A stretch of DNA of 64,000 nt from Steroidobacteraceae bacterium (GTDB lineage Bacteria > Pseudomonadota > Gammaproteobacteria > Steroidobacterales > Steroidobacteraceae), in NCBI GenBank assembly GCA_035342635.1, contig DAOQXO010000001.1, forward strand, positions 18,751-82,750. Direction: 5' to 3'. The translations under genes and the position numbers were made by a program. Below the pieces are notes generated by a model. The model was not told the DNA's origin. It was given only the letters and a program-made list of their open reading frames with translations, and did no database searches. This document shows, in pieces, positions 33,514 through 40,081 of the stretch; the stretch's first letter is position 1, and each line of letters starts with the position of its first letter.

Positions 33514-34023
33514 CTAGAACGCCTTCGCGATTATCGCCACGGTGAGCGTGGCGTGGATGCCGGCGAACAGCCACGGCACCAGCAGCTCGACCCGGGTGAT
33601 CTGCAGGTAATCGCGGCGCGAGCGGTCGGCTTCGAGCGCGACCCACTCGGCTGCATAGGGTGCGAGCGGCAATCCCTTCTCCATCGCGAGGATCACCCTG
33701 AACTTGCCGGCGTTCAGCTGCCGGTAGGACAGCACCATCATCCACCACGCCGCGCACATCAGGATCGCGGCGCATGCGGGCGCGAGCACCAGTGCGCGCG
33801 TCGTGATCAGGCCCGCCCGCAGCGCGAACACCAGCGCGCCGACCACCGCGGTGTTCATGCCGACGAAGAAAGAGTTGGCGAGCATGCGCCGGTTGCTGAC
33901 ACGGTCGGCCATCTCCACGTACATCTGGTACTGGCGCAGCGAGTGGTAGCGGTAGTCGTCGCCGTACCTGTCCTCGGGCGTCGAGAACAGGGCCTTGTTG
34001 ATGTTCTCTTCGGTACCGGGCAT
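33514..34023 (-). CDS. Small 3-TM membrane protein, third gene of the STAND/SLOG operon (SLATT-like or RipA-like; family uncertain)
   Basis: ATG 34023 lies 11 nt after the stop of the upstream gene (TAGGAACCACGGCCATG). The 169-aa product has an amphipathic helix YQMYVEMADRVSNRRMLANSFF, two adjacent TM helices, SYRQLNAGKFRVILAMEKGLP, and a third C-terminal TM. The long N-terminal extension of ORF 33514..34872 is rejected. Confidence 0.75.
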   Translation of the reverse strand: MPGTEENINKALFSTPEDRYGDDYRYHSLRQYQMYVEMADRVSNRRMLANSFFVGMNTAVVGALVFALRAGLITTRALVLAPACAAILMCAAWWMMVLSYRQLNAGKFRVILAMEKGLPLAPYAAEWVALEADRSRRDYLQITRVELLVPWLFAGIHATLTVAIIAKAF

Positions 34024-34034
34024 GGCCGTGGTTC

Positions 34035-35738
34035 CTAGTGTGAAGGCAGGTGGCGCAGTTTGCGATCGCGGTTCAGCAGCACCCAGGTCGCGTGTTCGGA
34101 CAGGGCCGCCCGCGCGAGTGAATAAAGCACGGCGCGCCGCCGCTCGTCCCCAGCTGCGCCCTGCAGGTGCGTGCGCGCCTCGTCGAACAGGCGGTACATG
34201 TAGCCATACTGGCGGGCCAGTTCCTTGGCGGCGGTCTTCTGCAGCCAGGCTTCGAGCAGACCGGCCACGAGCGGCAGCAGGCCCATCGTGACGACGAGCG
34301 GCGTTTTCACGTAGGGAACGTGTAGCACCGGGATGAAGCACAGCACCGCGGCCGCGGTGAGGCCCAGCACGAGCGTGACCGCGCCAATGCGTTCGGTGAG
34401 CGCGATCATGCGCCGGCGCCGTTCGCCGGCGCGCCAGAAATAGGCGAGCTGGCCGCCACCGCGGTCCTTGGTCAGGTCGAGCGAACCGACCCAATGCTCG
34501 ATCACATGCTCGATGCCGCCGCTCACGCCGGTGCGCCCCGCATCGTGCATCTCGAAGTCGACCGCGCGCATCGCGGTGCGGATCCAGTCGAGTTCGGTGT
34601 CCTGGCGGCGCAGGAAACTCTCGTCGCCGGTGTGCAGCCTGCCCTCGTCGCGCACGCCGGCGATACGCAGGTAGAACTGCACGCGCAGCCCCTCGCACAG
34701 CGCACGATACTCGAGATGGTCGCGGTGCCAGCCACGACCCTCGGCAAAACGGCTGAGCGCGATGGTCGTGAGCGCGGCTCCGAAGAACAGATAGATGAGT
34801 CCCCACATCGCCGGGATCTTCGAATACAGCACGAACGCGCAACCCATCACCGCGCCGATCGCATAGGTCCACGCGGTGATGCGCATCAGGCGCCGCCGAT
34901 GCTGGGTCGCAAGTCCGTCCGCGACCGCGATCAGGCGCGCACAGCGCGCGATCGCGGGCGGCGCGCCGACGAACGGTACGCTGCCAGGTCCGGCCAGATC
35001 GCCGGCGGCGGCGGCGGCGGCGTTGAACTCCTCGGTGCGATCGAGCACGTGCCGGTTGAGGTCTGGCATCGCATCGTGCAGGGCGGAGCGTCCGCCGGCG
35101 AACTCGTGGACGTAGCCTGCCGCGAGCGGATGGTGGCCGTTCGTCGGCTTGCCGTTAGGTCGCGCGCGCGACACGAGGATGTGGAACACGAGCGAATTGT
35201 CTACCTCGCCGAGCGCGAGATCGCGCAGGTCCTCGACCGCGGGCCGCACGCCGCCGCGCGACGCGAGCCGGTAATCCACCACCGCCGCCGTGCCGCCGGG
35301 GCTCGCCGCCGGCTTGCCGTCCCACAGCGCAAGCAGGATGTAGCAGTAGCGCGCGAGGAAGTCGCCGGCACTGGCGTACAGCGTGTCGCGGTCGTAGCTG
35401 GCTTCCCCGGATGCGAGATCGAGTACGCGCGAGGCGGCGCGCAACTTGTCGAAGCGCCCGCGCGCCGCATCGTCGGTCATCTGCGAGCGGTAGTCCTCGA
35501 GCGGCAGCGGCTGCAGGAACACGAGCTCGAGCCCGAGCGCGAGGGCCTCCTCGGCGACCAGCAGGTCGGCGCCCTCGGCAAGCTGCGAGGCGACCACGAT
35601 CGGCGTGTGCGGCCAGCGCTCGCGCAGGCCCTGCAGGAACTCGTGCACGCGTTCGCGGATCGCCGGCAGCTCGCTGTCGACGAGATCGCGGTGGCCGGTG
35701 ACACCGATGACGAGGGGAATGGCTGCGGGCAGTTCCAT
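34035..35738 (-). CDS. SLOG-like (DprA/LOG-type Rossmann) domain fused to two tandem SLATT/DUF4231-like 2-TM modules
   Basis: ATG 35738 (MELPAAIPLVIGVTGHRDL) lies 22 nt after the stop of the NTPase gene. N-terminal motifs are VIGVTGHRD, SQLAEGADLLVAEEA (cf. DprA SGxAxGID) and SPGGTAAVV (cf. LOG PGGxGT). TM pairs fall at residues ~287-330 and ~450-497, each preceded by an RRR(R) helix and followed by a W...E.L...Y helix. Confidence 0.7.
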   Translation of the reverse strand: MELPAAIPLVIGVTGHRDLVDSELPAIRERVHEFLQGLRERWPHTPIVVASQLAEGADLLVAEEALALGLELVFLQPLPLEDYRSQMTDDAARGRFDKLRAASRVLDLASGEASYDRDTLYASAGDFLARYCYILLALWDGKPAASPGGTAAVVDYRLASRGGVRPAVEDLRDLALGEVDNSLVFHILVSRARPNGKPTNGHHPLAAGYVHEFAGGRSALHDAMPDLNRHVLDRTEEFNAAAAAAGDLAGPGSVPFVGAPPAIARCARLIAVADGLATQHRRRLMRITAWTYAIGAVMGCAFVLYSKIPAMWGLIYLFFGAALTTIALSRFAEGRGWHRDHLEYRALCEGLRVQFYLRIAGVRDEGRLHTGDESFLRRQDTELDWIRTAMRAVDFEMHDAGRTGVSGGIEHVIEHWVGSLDLTKDRGGGQLAYFWRAGERRRRMIALTERIGAVTLVLGLTAAAVLCFIPVLHVPYVKTPLVVTMGLLPLVAGLLEAWLQKTAAKELARQYGYMYRLFDEARTHLQGAAGDERRRAVLYSLARAALSEHATWVLLNRDRKLRHLPSH

Positions 35739-35760: not shown

Positions 35761-38700
35761 TCAGCGGGGCAGGCGGGCAAGCCGTTGCTCGAGATCACGC
35801 GTGTAGTATCGCTCGCCGCCAAAGCGTTTGCGCACGATCGGCAGTGCTTCGGTCAGCAGCCTGCGGGCTTCGGGATATTTCTTCTCCGCGGCGTAGGTGG
35901 TGGCGAGCACGGCGTCCTGCAGCGCGTAGCGCCAGGCCTCGTCGGGCATCTCGGCAAGCGGGTACTGTTGTTCGAGCAGCGTTCTTGCCCGGGAGAGCAG
36001 TTCCCCGGCCTGCGGGGCGCGGTCCGTCTTTGCGTACACATCGGCGAGGTTGGTCAGCACCTGGTCCCGCATCCAGTGGTTTCGCTTCTCGGCGATACCC
36101 AGTGCCTCGTCGAGCCTCGCCTCCGCCCCTGCGTACCTGCGCCGCGCGAGGTCGATCATCGCGAGGCTGTTGAGTGGCAGGATCAGGTCGTCGTGGTCGG
36201 GGGGCTTGGTGCGCCGGTGAGTGTCGAGCGCCCTGGCCAGATAGCCTTCGGCCTCATCGAGCCTGCCTTCGATCAGCAGGCCACGGCCGATGTTGTTGGC
36301 CACACTCGCGCTCTCAGGGTGGTCTTTCCCCGCCCATTCGTCGGAGATGGCCAGGCATTCCTGCCACGCCGTCACCGCCTCCTCATACTGCCCGGTCTGG
36401 AAACTGATCGCGCCGAGATGATTCAGACTGTCGGCGACCTTCCAGTGTCCGCGACCGAGCGAGTTCCTCCTGATCGCGAGGCTGTCGCGAGTGAGCTGCT
36501 CCGCCTCGCCGTACCGCGCCTCGTAATAGAGCGTGATCGCGAGTCCCTGCATCGTCTCGGCGACCTCCAGGCTCTTCGCACCGTGCAGCCGCGTGTCGAT
36601 CGCGAGCGCCTCGCGATAGGCGGTCTCGGCATCGGCATCCGATCCCAGCTGCGACAGCGTATCGCCGAGGCCAACGAGTATGCGCGATACCAGTGCGTCG
36701 CCCTCGGGCGCAAGCTGCCGTGCACTGGCCAGGGCAATCCGGTATTGCTTCTCGGCCTCGACGTAAGCGCCGTCGAGGTACGTTGCGGCGGCCAGCGCCC
36801 GCCGCGTTTCGGTCGTGGCCCGTGTGTCGGCGCCCGCGGACCGTTCGCGCAATACCAGCGCATCGCGCAACAGTGCCTGCGCCGGGGCCGGCAGGCCGAG
36901 GCCCGTGTACGCCCGGCCCATCGCGGTCATCAGGCTCGAACGGATGGCGGGTCGATCCTGCAACTGGCGTTGCACGTCGGCGGCACCGCGGTCGAGCATC
37001 TCGCGCACCGTGAACTCGTTCGCGCGGGCCTCGGTCGGGTCAGCGAGCGTGAACAGGGAGACCATGAAATCCATGGTCTGCTCGGTCGTCGACGCCTCGG
37101 TCTCTGCCCGCTCCCGTTGCGAGGTGGCGACGAGAGCGGCGGTGGTCGCTGCCGTGGCGAGCACGGCCAGGCCGGCAACCGCGCTGTTGCGGGCGAGCCG
37201 TGCGCGGCGTGCCCGCGCCTGCGAAGCCTCGATCAGCGCGACTTCGGAGGGCGTGAGTTCCATGCCGGCAGCGGCGACACTCGCAGCCTCCTCGAGCGAT
37301 CGGCCCGCCGCCAGCAACAGATCGGCCCTGCGGCTTTCCTGCTCCCAGCGCTCCGCGTTCGCCGCCAGGCGTGCCCGGGCCCGCAACAGGTCGCGATTCT
37401 CGCCGAGCCAGTCGCGCACGCGCGGCCAATGGCGAAGCAGGGCCTCGTGCGCGATCGACACCACGGGTCGTGCGTCGTTGCCGAGTTCGGACACGCACAG
37501 GCGCGCCTCGATCAATGCATGCACGAGGTCCCACTGCGGACCGGCGGGGAACTCATCGAGCGCGGCGCTGCGGCGGCTGAATGCGCCCGCACCGGTGGTG
37601 GTTGCGCTGATGAGCCTGCGCAGGACCGATGACAGGCTTTCGCGGGTTGCCTCGGGCAGCGCCATGAACACCGCCTCGGCGCGCCGCGCGAGCGCGCCCT
37701 CGACGCCCCCGATGTCGTGGTAGGCGGCAAATGTCAGCGTGCCGTCGGACGCGCGTCGCAGGTAGAGCTCTTCGAGCGCGAACTCCAGCAGCGGCAGGGC
37801 CTCCGGGCTGCGTGCCGCTTCATCGCGCAGCACTTCGTCGAGACCCTCGCCGCCATCGACGCGCGTCTCGAAGCGCAGGCCGGCCGCCGCGGCAGGCAGC
37901 CGGATGATCTGGCCGATCTCCGCCGGCGTGGGTGCACGCAAGTCATATTGTCCGTCGCCCGCCTTCAGCGCGACGAGGGTCCCGTGCTCGACGCAGCGCG
38001 GATAGAAATCGCTGCGCAATGTCGCGATCGTCCAGACCTTGCGCGACGCCGTCACCTGCGCGAGCCGCGCAAAAAAACGCTCGCGCTCCGCGTGGCCGAT
38101 TCGCTCGTCGGCGAACACTTCCTCGAACTGGTCGATCACGAGCACGGTGCGTCGGTCCGGTGGCGCGGCCGCGGCCGCTTCGCCCAGGCTCTCTTCGAGC
38201 AGTGCGCAAAGGTCGTCCCTGCGGTCCCGCGGTCGCAACTCGACACGCCGCCATTCGGCAATACCCTCGATGACACCCGGTTGCGTGAGTACCGGCAGCA
38301 GGCCGGAGCGCACGACTGACGACTTGCCGCTGCCGCTTGCCCCGATCACGAGCAGGAATGGCCGGTCCGCGGCATCCTGCCGGCGCAGCGCCGCGATCAT
38401 CTCGCCGATCGCCGCGGTCCGGCCGAAGAACACCGGCGCGTGTTCGAAGTCGAAGGCCTCGAGGCCGCGAAACGGTGATTCGTGACGCCAGGTCGCGACA
38501 TCAGTGCGTGCGGCGCCGACCGCCTCCGGGAACGTGCGCGCGATCAGCTTGCGCAGGTGGACATCGATCAGTTCCTCGAACTGCGCGACGTCGGCGAACG
38601 GATGGAACGCCGCGCGCAGCGTGCCGTCCGTCTCGTCGTGGAACCACCGGCGCACGAAGGCATCGAGGGCCTGCTTCTGCCGCAGTCGCTCGAGCGACTG

Positions 38701-39102
38701 CGCATCATCGTCGGCATCGAGCAGCGGAGGAGCGGTCTTTCGATACACGAGCAGCGCGGGCCGTCCGTGCCGACGGTAACCCGACAGCGCGTCCTCGAAC
38801 TCGAACTCGGTTCCCGATTCGTAGTGCTTGCCGTCCGGCTTGCGAAACGATGCCGGCAGGCGCGTGCCGAGGCGCGACCACAGCACGCAGATGGCGGCGT
38901 GCGCATCGGCCGGGTGCGGCAACTGGTCCTGGAAGGAGGCGGAGGCGACGAGCGGTTCGTGTTCCCAGAAGACCGGCTCGATCCGAACGCGCCCGTTGAA
39001 CTCGCTGCCCAGGCGGTCGATGACGCGCCGGGCGATCAGCCGCTCTTCGGCGACATCCCCCGGCGACGACAGGAATATCCGGAACGTGTCCAACGCGCGC
39101 AC
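35761..39102 (-). CDS. STAND-type P-loop NTPase with DUF4062/TIR-like N-terminal domain, one TM helix and C-terminal TPR repeats
   Basis: 1113 aa, GTG start (boundary uncertain). N-terminus is RIFLSSPGDVAEER...ESGTEFEFEDAL...PALLVYRK. Next come FRGLEAFDFEHAPVFFGR, Walker A GASGSGKS (nt 38320..38343) and Walker B-like LVIDQFEEVF. A hydrophobic helix AVAGLAVLATAATTAALVATS lies at ~37120..37185. About 400 aa of TPR_12-like repeats follow (e.g. YREALAIDTRLHGAKSLEVAETMQGLAITLYYEARYGEAEQL). Confidence 0.8.
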   Translation of the reverse strand: MRALDTFRIFLSSPGDVAEERLIARRVIDRLGSEFNGRVRIEPVFWEHEPLVASASFQDQLPHPADAHAAICVLWSRLGTRLPASFRKPDGKHYESGTEFEFEDALSGYRRHGRPALLVYRKTAPPLLDADDDAQSLERLRQKQALDAFVRRWFHDETDGTLRAAFHPFADVAQFEELIDVHLRKLIARTFPEAVGAARTDVATWRHESPFRGLEAFDFEHAPVFFGRTAAIGEMIAALRRQDAADRPFLLVIGASGSGKSSVVRSGLLPVLTQPGVIEGIAEWRRVELRPRDRRDDLCALLEESLGEAAAAAPPDRRTVLVIDQFEEVFADERIGHAERERFFARLAQVTASRKVWTIATLRSDFYPRCVEHGTLVALKAGDGQYDLRAPTPAEIGQIIRLPAAAAGLRFETRVDGGEGLDEVLRDEAARSPEALPLLEFALEELYLRRASDGTLTFAAYHDIGGVEGALARRAEAVFMALPEATRESLSSVLRRLISATTTGAGAFSRRSAALDEFPAGPQWDLVHALIEARLCVSELGNDARPVVSIAHEALLRHWPRVRDWLGENRDLLRARARLAANAERWEQESRRADLLLAAGRSLEEAASVAAAGMELTPSEVALIEASQARARRARLARNSAVAGLAVLATAATTAALVATSQRERAETEASTTEQTMDFMVSLFTLADPTEARANEFTVREMLDRGAADVQRQLQDRPAIRSSLMTAMGRAYTGLGLPAPAQALLRDALVLRERSAGADTRATTETRRALAAATYLDGAYVEAEKQYRIALASARQLAPEGDALVSRILVGLGDTLSQLGSDADAETAYREALAIDTRLHGAKSLEVAETMQGLAITLYYEARYGEAEQLTRDSLAIRRNSLGRGHWKVADSLNHLGAISFQTGQYEEAVTAWQECLAISDEWAGKDHPESASVANNIGRGLLIEGRLDEAEGYLARALDTHRRTKPPDHDDLILPLNSLAMIDLARRRYAGAEARLDEALGIAEKRNHWMRDQVLTNLADVYAKTDRAPQAGELLSRARTLLEQQYPLAEMPDEAWRYALQDAVLATTYAAEKKYPEARRLLTEALPIVRKRFGGERYYTRDLEQRLARLPR

Positions 39103-39163: not shown

Positions 39164-40081
39164 TCAACGAGCCGCGGGCTGGCCAGTGCGCCGCCGGATC
39201 ATGAGCAGGGCGGCAAGTCCGGCGAGCATCAGCACCAGGGTGCCAGGTTCCGGGACGGGCGCAGGCGGCGGCGGTGTCGTGCCTCCCACGAGCACGCCAT
39301 CGCGGAAGCGGAAGAAGTAATCGGCATCCTCGACCAGCGCGTCAGTGCTGCGAAACAGATCGGCGCCGCCGGCGGTGATGAACTGGTTGCCGATCAGCGA
39401 TGGGAAGGACGAGTCGAGGGCGTTCGAGCCGTAGCGCATGTCGACGTCGAAGTCGCCGTTGCCGAGGAAGTAGATGTACGCCTGGAAGTCGTAGGTCGTG
39501 TCGGGATCGTCCGCGAGCGCGATGTTGGTCCAGAAGAAACGTATGCCGGCCACCGCGGCGTCCGCGTCAGGTGCGGCGTCACTGAGACCCATGCCGAAAC
39601 CGAAGGTATACGAGGTGCTGCCATCGCCGTTCGACGAGAAAGTGCCGTCGCCAAGGTCGTAGGCATTCGAGGCGAGATCGGCCGCAAACACGCCGAACAG
39701 CGGATCCGCGGCGCTGTAGCCGGTGGCGGAGTCGAAGAGCGCGAAGCTGCCGTCTTCGAACATCCGCAGCGAGTCGTAGCTGGTGCCGCCGATATTGAGG
39801 GCGTGCGAACTGTAGGGGCCGCCGAGCAGCGTATCGTCGCTGTCCCGGTACTCGGTCGTGAAGAGGAGCGACCCGTCGGCGGGTGCCGAGGTCAGGTCGA
39901 CGCCGTCGTCGAAGGAGCTGTCGAACCCGACCCCGGGCCGGCCAGGCCAGCCCGCGCCGGACTGCGGAAACGACTCGGGTCCGAAGTCGACCTGGACCCG
40001 TCGGGCCTCTGCGGTCCCGATTGGCAGCAGGGCCACGGCAACGGCGGCGATCAGGGCCCTGGACACCCGGTTGGTGGACAT
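39164..40081 (-). CDS. PEP-CTERM sorting-domain secreted protein
   Basis: Signal peptide MSTNRVSRALIAAVAVALLPIGTAEA. The C-terminus PVPEPGTLVLMLAGLAALLMIRRRTG is a canonical PEP-CTERM anchor (PEP motif, TM, Arg cluster). Confidence 0.85.
   Translation of the reverse strand: MSTNRVSRALIAAVAVALLPIGTAEARRVQVDFGPESFPQSGAGWPGRPGVGFDSSFDDGVDLTSAPADGSLLFTTEYRDSDDTLLGGPYSSHALNIGGTSYDSLRMFEDGSFALFDSATGYSAADPLFGVFAADLASNAYDLGDGTFSSNGDGSTSYTFGFGMGLSDAAPDADAAVAGIRFFWTNIALADDPDTTYDFQAYIYFLGNGDFDVDMRYGSNALDSSFPSLIGNQFITAGGADLFRSTDALVEDADYFFRFRDGVLVGGTTPPPPAPVPEPGTLVLMLAGLAALLMIRRRTGQPAAR

Follow-up and report, generated by a model that had tools for sequence, protein, structure and literature searches.

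Organisation of the locus

A 64,000-nucleotide stretch of DNA from a Steroidobacteraceae bacterium (GenBank assembly GCA_035342635.1, contig DAOQXO010000001.1, positions 18,751 to 82,750 of the forward strand; hereafter the window) contains three adjoining genes, designated A, B and C, of which B, encoding a protein with a predicted SLOG head and two SLATT-type membrane modules, is the subject of this analysis. All three lie on the minus strand, separated by gaps of 22 nucleotides (from the stop codon of A to B) and 11 nucleotides (from B to the start of C), and form one tightly packed operon (Table 1). Gene A encodes a DUF4062 domain followed by an nSTAND1 NTPase and a TPR array, and gene C a membrane protein of the 8xMP/RipA family. 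A preliminary description of this DNA, made from the sequence alone, had placed B at 34035-35738; these coordinates and the frame of the 567-residue protein hold, with the two peptides quoted there falling at residues 280-357 and 439-518. The ATG of B has GGGAGA just 5' of it, and this start is favoured over an upstream TTG because the homologues share the same first methionine. Promoter and terminator scans of the locus were uninformative.

Two SLATT-type membrane modules in B

Forty homologues of B were aligned, and the alignment was used for conservation analysis, column-averaged hydropathy and modelling in AlphaFold2 (AF2). Kyte-Doolittle analysis, both of B alone and averaged over the alignment columns, placed hydrophobic helices at about residues 286-306 and 312-331 (TM1 and TM2) and 449-470 and 479-499 (TM3 and TM4), and the AF2 model (predicted local distance difference test score, pLDDT, 83.4; predicted template-modelling score 0.85) has helices at residues 261-307, 313-335, 429-468 and 475-502. 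Both modules are built alike in the model, with a long helix running from the cytoplasm into the first transmembrane (TM) helix, a tight turn, the second TM helix and a further cytoplasmic helix. The stretches ahead of the two hairpins contain four and five Lys and Arg per 20 residues and the hairpin loops comprise 5-8 residues, suggesting an in-out-in topology in which every soluble part of the protein is predicted to be cytoplasmic. The four TM helices and basic patches of the preliminary description are thus borne out by the hydropathy of B and its family as well as by the AF2 model, and the SLATT layout, two close TM helices with flanking cytoplasmic helices, occurs twice in B on the same evidence.

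Profile scans of the modules were carried out on 23 family members with Pfam and NCBIfam models. Module 1 matched Pfam DUF4231, which we take to be a member of the SLATT clan, in 22 members (best E-value 7.8e-7), and SLATT_3 in 16 members with the Pfam model and in all 23 with the NCBIfam model (best 1.6e-7). Module 2 matched Pfam SLATT_1 in 17 members (best 9e-9) and SLATT_6 in three. A single NCBIfam model, SLATT_1, recognises both modules, the first of them in 11 members and the second in 17. As a control, none of 10 reversed module sequences matched SLATT. One reversed TM sequence did match Pfam DUF2207_C (E-value 2.7e-5), suggesting that single TM-family matches near 1e-5 may reflect composition alone and are not safe by themselves. 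A precomputed PF18181 annotation was found on approximately 10 of 120 homologues, and an 836-residue paralogue, P0020, carries SLATT_3 and SLATT_1 matches in tandem. The SLATT-like nature of the modules, as first proposed, is therefore supported by matches that recur through the family and vanish on reversal.

The preliminary description also regarded the two halves as alike and derived them from an internal duplication, a view it would have taken as refuted if HHalign showed no significant self-similarity; that is the outcome obtained here. They share one common layout, but sequence similarity beyond chance was not detected by hhalign, BLASTP or comparison with a reversed control. Two independently cut pairs of sub-alignments gave hhalign E-values of 0.12 and 0.18 over 8-10 columns, the score between the halves (13.3) fell under that obtained with the second half reversed (18.4), and among local, low-mact and global runs the global scores lay within the range of column-shuffled controls. 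BLASTP gave nothing better between the halves than a match of 23 residues (E-value 0.02), all of them within a TM helix. As no score of half against half rose above the controls, and as the halves resemble different SLATT subfamilies, an internal duplication is not supported and we do not put it forward. We read B, from these sequence comparisons, as two SLATT-type modules of different subfamilies whose fusion or divergence is probably ancient; nothing indicates that a duplication took place recently.

A SLOG-fold head and its connection to the membrane modules

The model of the N-terminal head is well defined (pLDDT >90 over residues 11-110), and its best Foldseek match is YpsA (2nx2, E-value 1.3e-4, template-modelling score 0.67 on the target). 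Other matches include DprA from three species (3uqz, 5mll and 4ljk), ShosA (8zva), TM1055 (1rcu) and a type-II LOG protein (5wq3), while the SLOG-like N-terminal regions of TRPM2, TRPM4 and TRPM8 appear with Foldseek probabilities of 0.04-0.57. By its predicted structure the head has the SLOG fold, a Rossmann-like alpha/beta fold as in LOG, DprA/Smf and YpsA, and the SLOG head of the preliminary description stands at the level of fold. Conservation of the head in the 40 sequences is concentrated in three glycine-rich loops, with G12, T14, H16, R17 and D18, E55, G56 and D58, and G148, G149, T150 and A151 being invariant or at least 90% conserved; the columns of H16, R17, D18, G56, T150 and A151 are fully invariant. 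Loops of this kind bind nucleotide in the SLOG fold, and GxTGHRD, LAEGAD and GGTA are candidates for that role in B.

An alternative explanation is that the head is a membrane-tethered, LOG-like nucleotide hydrolase or processing enzyme rather than a sensor, given that the SLOG-fold proteins of the LOG family act as phosphoribohydrolases and that LOG structures are found among the fold matches. The LOG catalytic motif is PGGxGTxxE, of which the acidic residue is not conserved in the corresponding GGT loop of the B family (consensus GGTAQVVxFH), making a sensor role likelier than an enzymatic one; moreover, the best fold matches are to the non-catalytic YpsA and DprA types. We regard a catalytic head as very unlikely.

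The region between the head and TM1 (residues 161-260) probably extends the head and is more than a featureless linker, as residues 183-245 are structured in the model and carry the invariant H186 and R191. Between the two hairpins, the insert of residues 361-428 ranks among the most conserved stretches of the family; it is modelled with helices at residues 381-400 and 408-417 and strands at 419-428, and L376, L383, W385, I386, R391 and W416 are invariant. We regard both the presumed linker and the insert as functional parts of B, plausibly coupling the sensor-like head to the membrane modules.

The B family

At least 733 homologues of B were found at E ≤ 0.001 in a word-indexed search, and among the best 120 all but a few truncated ones cover 97-100% of B. 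An exhaustive profile search returned 2,931 50%-identity clusters with E ≤ 1e-30, a count that rises to 10,677 when the threshold is relaxed to 1e-3; approximately 120 of the best 150 match the whole profile without a break. In a scan of 185,579 species-representative genomes, at least 569 matching stretches encode relatives of B, mostly from Gammaproteobacteria (Steroidobacteraceae, Woeseiaceae and Lysobacterales, including Luteibacter and Luteimonas). The four-helix layout is thus the norm of the family and not a local oddity, and the two-module arrangement is old and fixed family-wide, rather than the product of a local tandem event. All names recovered for these relatives, distant ones included, read 'hypothetical protein'. 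The present analysis gives a domain architecture to this very large family, which comprises thousands of clusters at 50% identity and is almost entirely labelled hypothetical in public databases.

A Woeseiaceae subgroup of the family (P0019-P0058, approximately 840 residues) has an extra YAcAr-type SLOG domain N-terminal to the head found in other members, so that a single protein combines two SLOG-like domains with two SLATT modules. In P0020 (L005:8001-10511, 836 residues), the extra N-terminal domain matches YAcAr with an E-value of 3e-6, just under the cut-off.

Partner genes of B and the domains of A

The neighbourhoods of 85 related loci were scored with hidden Markov models, 55 of these loci being well flanked (at least 3 kb on each side). 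A TIR-TPR gene stands beside B in 37 of the 85 loci and a DUF4062-nSTAND1-TPR gene in 18, and the two never occur together; one or the other is present in 41 of the 55 well-flanked loci. The TIR-TPR partner, the commonest neighbour of B outside the A-B-C loci, is a protein of approximately 700 residues with an N-terminal TIR_2 or ThsB_TIR domain followed by TPR. Its gene lies upstream or downstream of B, in most cases no more than 1.5 kb away and in the same orientation. Among distant members, P0466 is adjoined by TIR_2 genes and two others are not. These pairing data support a functional coupling of B with a TIR-type enzyme, and the mutually exclusive choice of TIR-TPR or DUF4062-STAND-TPR provides comparative evidence that DUF4062, so far shown only as an enzyme depleting nicotinamide adenine dinucleotide (NAD+), can stand in for a signalling TIR. 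The order A-B-C is confined to a clade of at least 55% identity to B (11 loci), in which the flanking genes are syntenic as well. In the window, the usual TIR-TPR partner gives way to a DUF4062-STAND-TPR protein, and an 8xMP protein comes in addition.

The central part of A (residues 210-593) is an nSTAND1 domain matching PF20703 over profile positions 1-378 of 379 (E-value 1.3e-94, 318 bits against a cut-off of 27.1), and its TPR array is evidenced by Pfam TPR_12 and TPR_10 matches. A match of A to Pfam TPR_NPHP3 lies below the cut-off of that model, and the TPR region is 27-41% identical to those of the TIR-TPR partners. The N-terminus of A gives no match to PF13271 at E ≤ 1 on its own; 32 of 37 homologues with 40-60% identity do match (best 1.9e-6), and Glu101 is invariant in 37 aligned sequences. 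Its AF2 model (pLDDT 91.9) shows a flavodoxin/TIR-like fold, for which Foldseek retrieved TIR-STING (9lmq), the RUN1 TIR domain (7rx1) and NDT (8qc0), with template-modelling scores of only 0.3-0.5. Judged by the family-wide profile matches, residues 1-200 of A belong to DUF4062. The neighbour of B in the window thus carries the TIR-like DUF4062 and no Pfam TIR domain, so that the adjoining TIR protein by which Thoeris loci are recognised is absent here.

Gene C, an 8xMP protein

The product of C matches Pfam 8xMP (PF24838) over profile positions 1-135 of 136 (E-value 4.9e-38, 130.5 bits against a cut-off of 30), and its homologues are named 'RipA family octameric membrane protein' at NCBI. 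The preliminary description had counted C as a third related protein alongside the tandem pair of B. No Pfam or NCBIfam SLATT model matched C, and the C-family profile matched neither B module in hhalign (E-values 0.13 for module 1 and 0.019 for module 2, over TM stretches only); as these profile-profile comparisons are not significant, C was rejected as a SLATT relative. Taken together, the observation made in that description is partly confirmed and its interpretation partly supported.

C adjoins B only in the clade of at least 55% identity, where it is found in 10 of 11 loci, that is, in every one whose contig runs past B, and it is absent from all 74 more distant loci, suggesting that B does not generally need C. 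Elsewhere, 8xMP genes directly adjoin small ThsB-type TIR genes in three unrelated genomes (Aeromonas, a 5.4-Mb genome and an acidobacterial contig), pointing to C as a member of an independent, TIR-linked family of membrane effectors. The TIRs of these pairs are 38-56% identical to TIRs listed under the putative '3TM' effector class (Yirmiya et al. 2025), and 8xMP is probably that class of Thoeris effector. Those pairs have 8xMP beside a small TIR, whereas in the window C is encoded together with a STAND-DUF4062 protein and with B, a second putative membrane effector. A literature search on 8xMP, octameric membrane protein and RipA found nothing relevant in the papers available.

It was originally proposed that B, having arisen by internal SLATT duplication, assembles with a related C into a hetero-oligomeric pore. 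The 11-nucleotide spacing of the two genes and the presence of C in all close-clade loci that extend past B would fit such an assembly, as would the fact that both are helical-hairpin membrane proteins with small loops and that 8xMP matches, albeit weak (E-value approximately 0.07), occur in two of the 23 module-1 sequences. Nevertheless, the halves of B are no closer to each other than to a reversed control, the C profile matches neither of them, C is missing from the 74 distant loci, and 8xMP occurs alone beside TIR genes in other genomes. A pore of this origin and composition appears improbable.

Comparison with Thoeris systems and proposed mechanism

Thoeris systems consist of a TIR signal generator and an effector sensing its signal (bioRxiv 10.64898/2025.12.03.692087). 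The SLOG domain of ThsA senses TIR-made isomers of cyclic ADP-ribose (cADPR), SLATT is the effector of type VII Thoeris with canonical cADPR, and oligomerisation into a membrane-breaching assembly has been proposed for type VII (bioRxiv 10.64898/2025.12.03.692087). An effector class termed 'SLOG and 4TM' is among the 29 classes predicted for Thoeris (Yirmiya et al. 2025, bioRxiv 10.64898/2025.12.03.692087, Tables S1/S2). By its description this class has the same stated architecture as B and the same placement beside a TIR gene, although no STAND/DUF4062 partner or 8xMP co-effector is described for it, and the TIRs of its tested operons show no similarity to any partner gene found here. SLOG sensors, SLATT effectors and TIR signalling are established elements of immunity in bacteria; given this and the earlier prediction of a 'SLOG and 4TM' effector, the individual parts of the system are not new.

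Similar to type VII Thoeris, composed of a ThsB TIR and ThsH, the B locus places a putative SLATT-type membrane effector next to a TIR-type signal generator. ThsH, however, is annotated as a SLATT-domain protein only, with ligand pockets proposed between protomers, whereas B adds a SLOG head, modules from two SLATT subfamilies and a conserved insert. In type I Thoeris, the SLOG domain of ThsA (SIR2-SLOG) is the receptor of a TIR-made, ADP-ribose-derived signal, and the head of B also has a predicted SLOG fold; the two differ in that the output of ThsA is a SIR2 NADase and that of B a membrane module, and in that the head of B is nearest to YpsA and DprA and matches no SLOG profile.

Since its family usually adjoins genes for TIR or TIR-like NAD-cleaving enzymes, B most likely serves a Thoeris-like defence system as the component that damages the membrane. 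Somewhat on the favourable side of even, in our judgement, is the fuller proposal that A, B and C act together as a Thoeris-like module, whose sensor is an NLR-like STAND protein replacing the plain TIR protein, and that an NAD-derived product gates B. In such a pathway, the TPR array of A would pick up an infection cue, upon which the nSTAND1 NTPase may oligomerise and activate the N-terminal DUF4062 domain. The product, ADP-ribose or a derivative, would bind the cytoplasmic SLOG head of B, and the conserved helical insert may relay binding to the SLATT-type hairpins, which would oligomerise or rearrange, permeabilise the inner membrane and so stop the infected cell. C could be a second, independently evolved TIR-linked membrane effector that was recruited to the operon and acts in parallel; the operon would then join one sensor to two unrelated TIR-linked membrane effectors. 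The comparison suggests what the ligand may be, namely that the head of B binds ADP-ribose or a cADPR isomer, and it supplies a set of partners close to the native ones for an effector class whose heterologous tests were negative.

DUF4062 has been characterised as a TIR-like NADase with a catalytic Glu, yielding ADP-ribose and nicotinamide, and the order DUF4062-STAND-repeat is known from human NPHP3, NWD1/2 and TEP1 (bioRxiv 10.64898/2026.05.01.722283). The N-terminus of A can be compared with that of Swarozyc and other DUF4062 NADases in that it belongs to DUF4062 and keeps the catalytic-type Glu, and the layout of A as a whole, DUF4062 with STAND NTPase and TPR, is that of NPHP3. Swarozyc differs in being a single protein that depletes NAD+ upon binding a phage portal, with no downstream SLOG or membrane effector described. 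A stronger form of the proposal, which we put forward tentatively and consider less likely than not to be correct, is that the DUF4062 NADase of A acts as a signal generator and not only as a drain on NAD+, with ADP-ribose or a derivative gating both B and C. If this were the case, a DUF4062 enzyme would for the first time be seen to drive a pathway of the Thoeris type, which would also be a bacterial counterpart of the gating of TRPM2 by ADP-ribose through a SLOG-like domain.

A might instead be a self-sufficient defence protein, similar to Avs or Swarozyc, that kills by NAD+ depletion, in which case B and C would share the operon without being gated by its product and B might respond to direct contact with the TPR array or to another cue. 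Characterised DUF4062 effectors that deplete NAD+ need no partner, and at distant loci 2-3 kb and another gene lie between the A-like gene and B. This explanation leaves unaccounted for the conserved nucleotide-sensor fold of B, the TIR or DUF4062 neighbour, never both, in 55 of 85 loci, and the recurrence of SLATT and 8xMP beside small ThsB-type TIRs lacking any other effector, and we consider it unlikely. SLOG, SLATT or membrane partners go unmentioned in both bioRxiv 10.64898/2026.05.01.722283 and the Evangelion DUF4062 paper.

Several observations weigh against a Thoeris-like defence role for the operon. At the level of sequence the head was not identified as SLOG, and no SLOG-type Pfam or NCBIfam profile matched B at E ≤ 1; searches of PDB sequences with B and its family profile gave chance TM matches only (e.g. 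melanocortin receptor 4, E-value 0.09), none of them SLOG. The scores of B itself against SLATT models lie under the curated cut-offs (SLATT_1, 17.3 against 26.3 bits; DUF4231, 14.5 against 24.7; NCBIfam SLATT_1, 28.9 against 41). PADLOC returned no match for C or for B, suggesting that B is unlike the catalogued 2TM/4TM effector models of cyclic-oligonucleotide-based antiphage signalling systems, and no copy of B was found among the plasmids of PLSDB. The surroundings of the operon in the window are not those of a defence island but consist of housekeeping-type genes (Metallophos, CBS, NfeD, Band_7 and DUF885) in conserved synteny, and in 14 of the 55 well-flanked loci the 10 kb around B contain neither a TIR nor a DUF4062 gene. 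Moreover, two 'SLOG and 4TM' operons, from Streptomyces sp. GKU 895 and Ca. Nitrospira nitrosa, showed no defence when tested in E. coli (bioRxiv 10.64898/2025.12.03.692087), and the DUF4062 proteins characterised so far deplete NAD+ and do not signal (bioRxiv 10.64898/2026.05.01.722283).

Some of these points would suit a physiological role, with B being a vertically inherited, nucleotide-gated channel or stress sensor analogous to TRPM2 and unrelated to phage defence, and its TIR and TPR neighbours being regulators of normal signalling. The family is very large and chromosomal, its synteny is conserved in Steroidobacteraceae, partnerless loci exist, and TRPM2, TRPM4 and TRPM8 are among the fold matches, at low probability. 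Like B, TRPM2, a cation channel gated by ADP-ribose, couples an N-terminal SLOG-like domain (its MHR1/2) to a membrane domain; it is, however, a tetrameric channel with six TM helices, which are unrelated to the two 2TM hairpins of B, and the fold match is at the level of analogy only. On the other hand, TIR-TPR proteins, STAND NTPases, SLATT and 8xMP are all recurrent parts of conflict systems, a caspase gene lies downstream of B at one locus (L022), and a transposase, a toxin-antitoxin pair and a restriction-system subunit are found near related loci. A purely physiological channel therefore seems doubtful, and the Thoeris-like module remains the reading that we prefer.

Other genes at the window and related loci

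The features discussed here are collected in Table 1. At distant loci, B is separated from the STAND or TIR gene by a conserved extra gene, which encodes a protein of approximately 500 or 700 residues; one member of the 500-residue type shows a weak match to the DUF6923 repeat, and the 700-residue type has no Pfam match. In some Lysobacterales, an nSTAND1 protein of 1070-1473 residues is encoded directly upstream of B (confirmed with Pfam for L020 and L035). Neither TIR nor DUF4062 was detected among their domains, and their N-terminal regions, of up to about 430 residues, carry no domain assignment.

Table 1 Positions of the genes and protein regions described in the text (window coordinates unless a locus is named)
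Feature	Position	Strand	Description
Gene A	35761-39102	-	1113 amino acids; DUF4062 (TIR-like, NADase-type), nSTAND1 NTPase and TPR array
Gene B	34035-35738	-	567 amino acids; predicted SLOG head and two SLATT-type 2TM modules
Gene C	33514-34023	-	169 amino acids; 8xMP/RipA-family three-helix membrane protein
A residues 1-200, DUF4062-type TIR-like domain	38503-39102	-	invariant Glu101 in SGTEFEFEDA; family match to PF13271
B residues 1-160, predicted SLOG-fold core	35259-35738	-	Foldseek matches to YpsA, DprA and LOG; conserved GxTGHRD (12-18), LAEGAD (53-58) and GGTA (148-151)
B residues 161-260, region between head and TM1	34959-35258	-	disordered loop 161-181, then strands and helix; invariant H186 and R191
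B residues 261-360, SLATT-type module 1	34659-34958	-	pre-TM helix, TM1, TM2, post-TM helix with WHRxxLxYRxLxEGLRV
B residues 361-428, inter-hairpin insert	34455-34658	-	conserved helices, predicted cytoplasmic, and beta-hairpin
B residues 429-557, SLATT-type module 2	34068-34454	-	pre-TM helix, TM3, TM4, two C-terminal helices
Gene upstream of A	39164-40081	-	305 amino acids
8xMP and ThsB-type TIR gene pairs	L086:2753-4223; L087:5425-7010; L089:5557-6492		
Extra genes between STAND or TIR gene and B	L018:8310-9812; L052:8191-9948; L005:6358-7797; L046:7600-9810; L055:6147-8258; L019:7610-9799		
nSTAND1 genes upstream of B	L020:5503-9924; L035:6564-9959; L033:6670-9882		
Caspase-domain gene downstream of B	L022:11884-14196		770 amino acids; Peptidase_C14

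The locus with the caspase-domain gene just downstream of B, L022, comes from a Steroidobacteraceae metagenome-assembled genome, in which an A-like gene is present on the opposite strand. In the window, the gene upstream of A encodes a protein with a C-terminal PEP-CTERM-like sorting signal (VPEPGTLVLMLAGLAALLMIRRR), the syntenic counterpart of which in L001 gives a weak match to PF07589.

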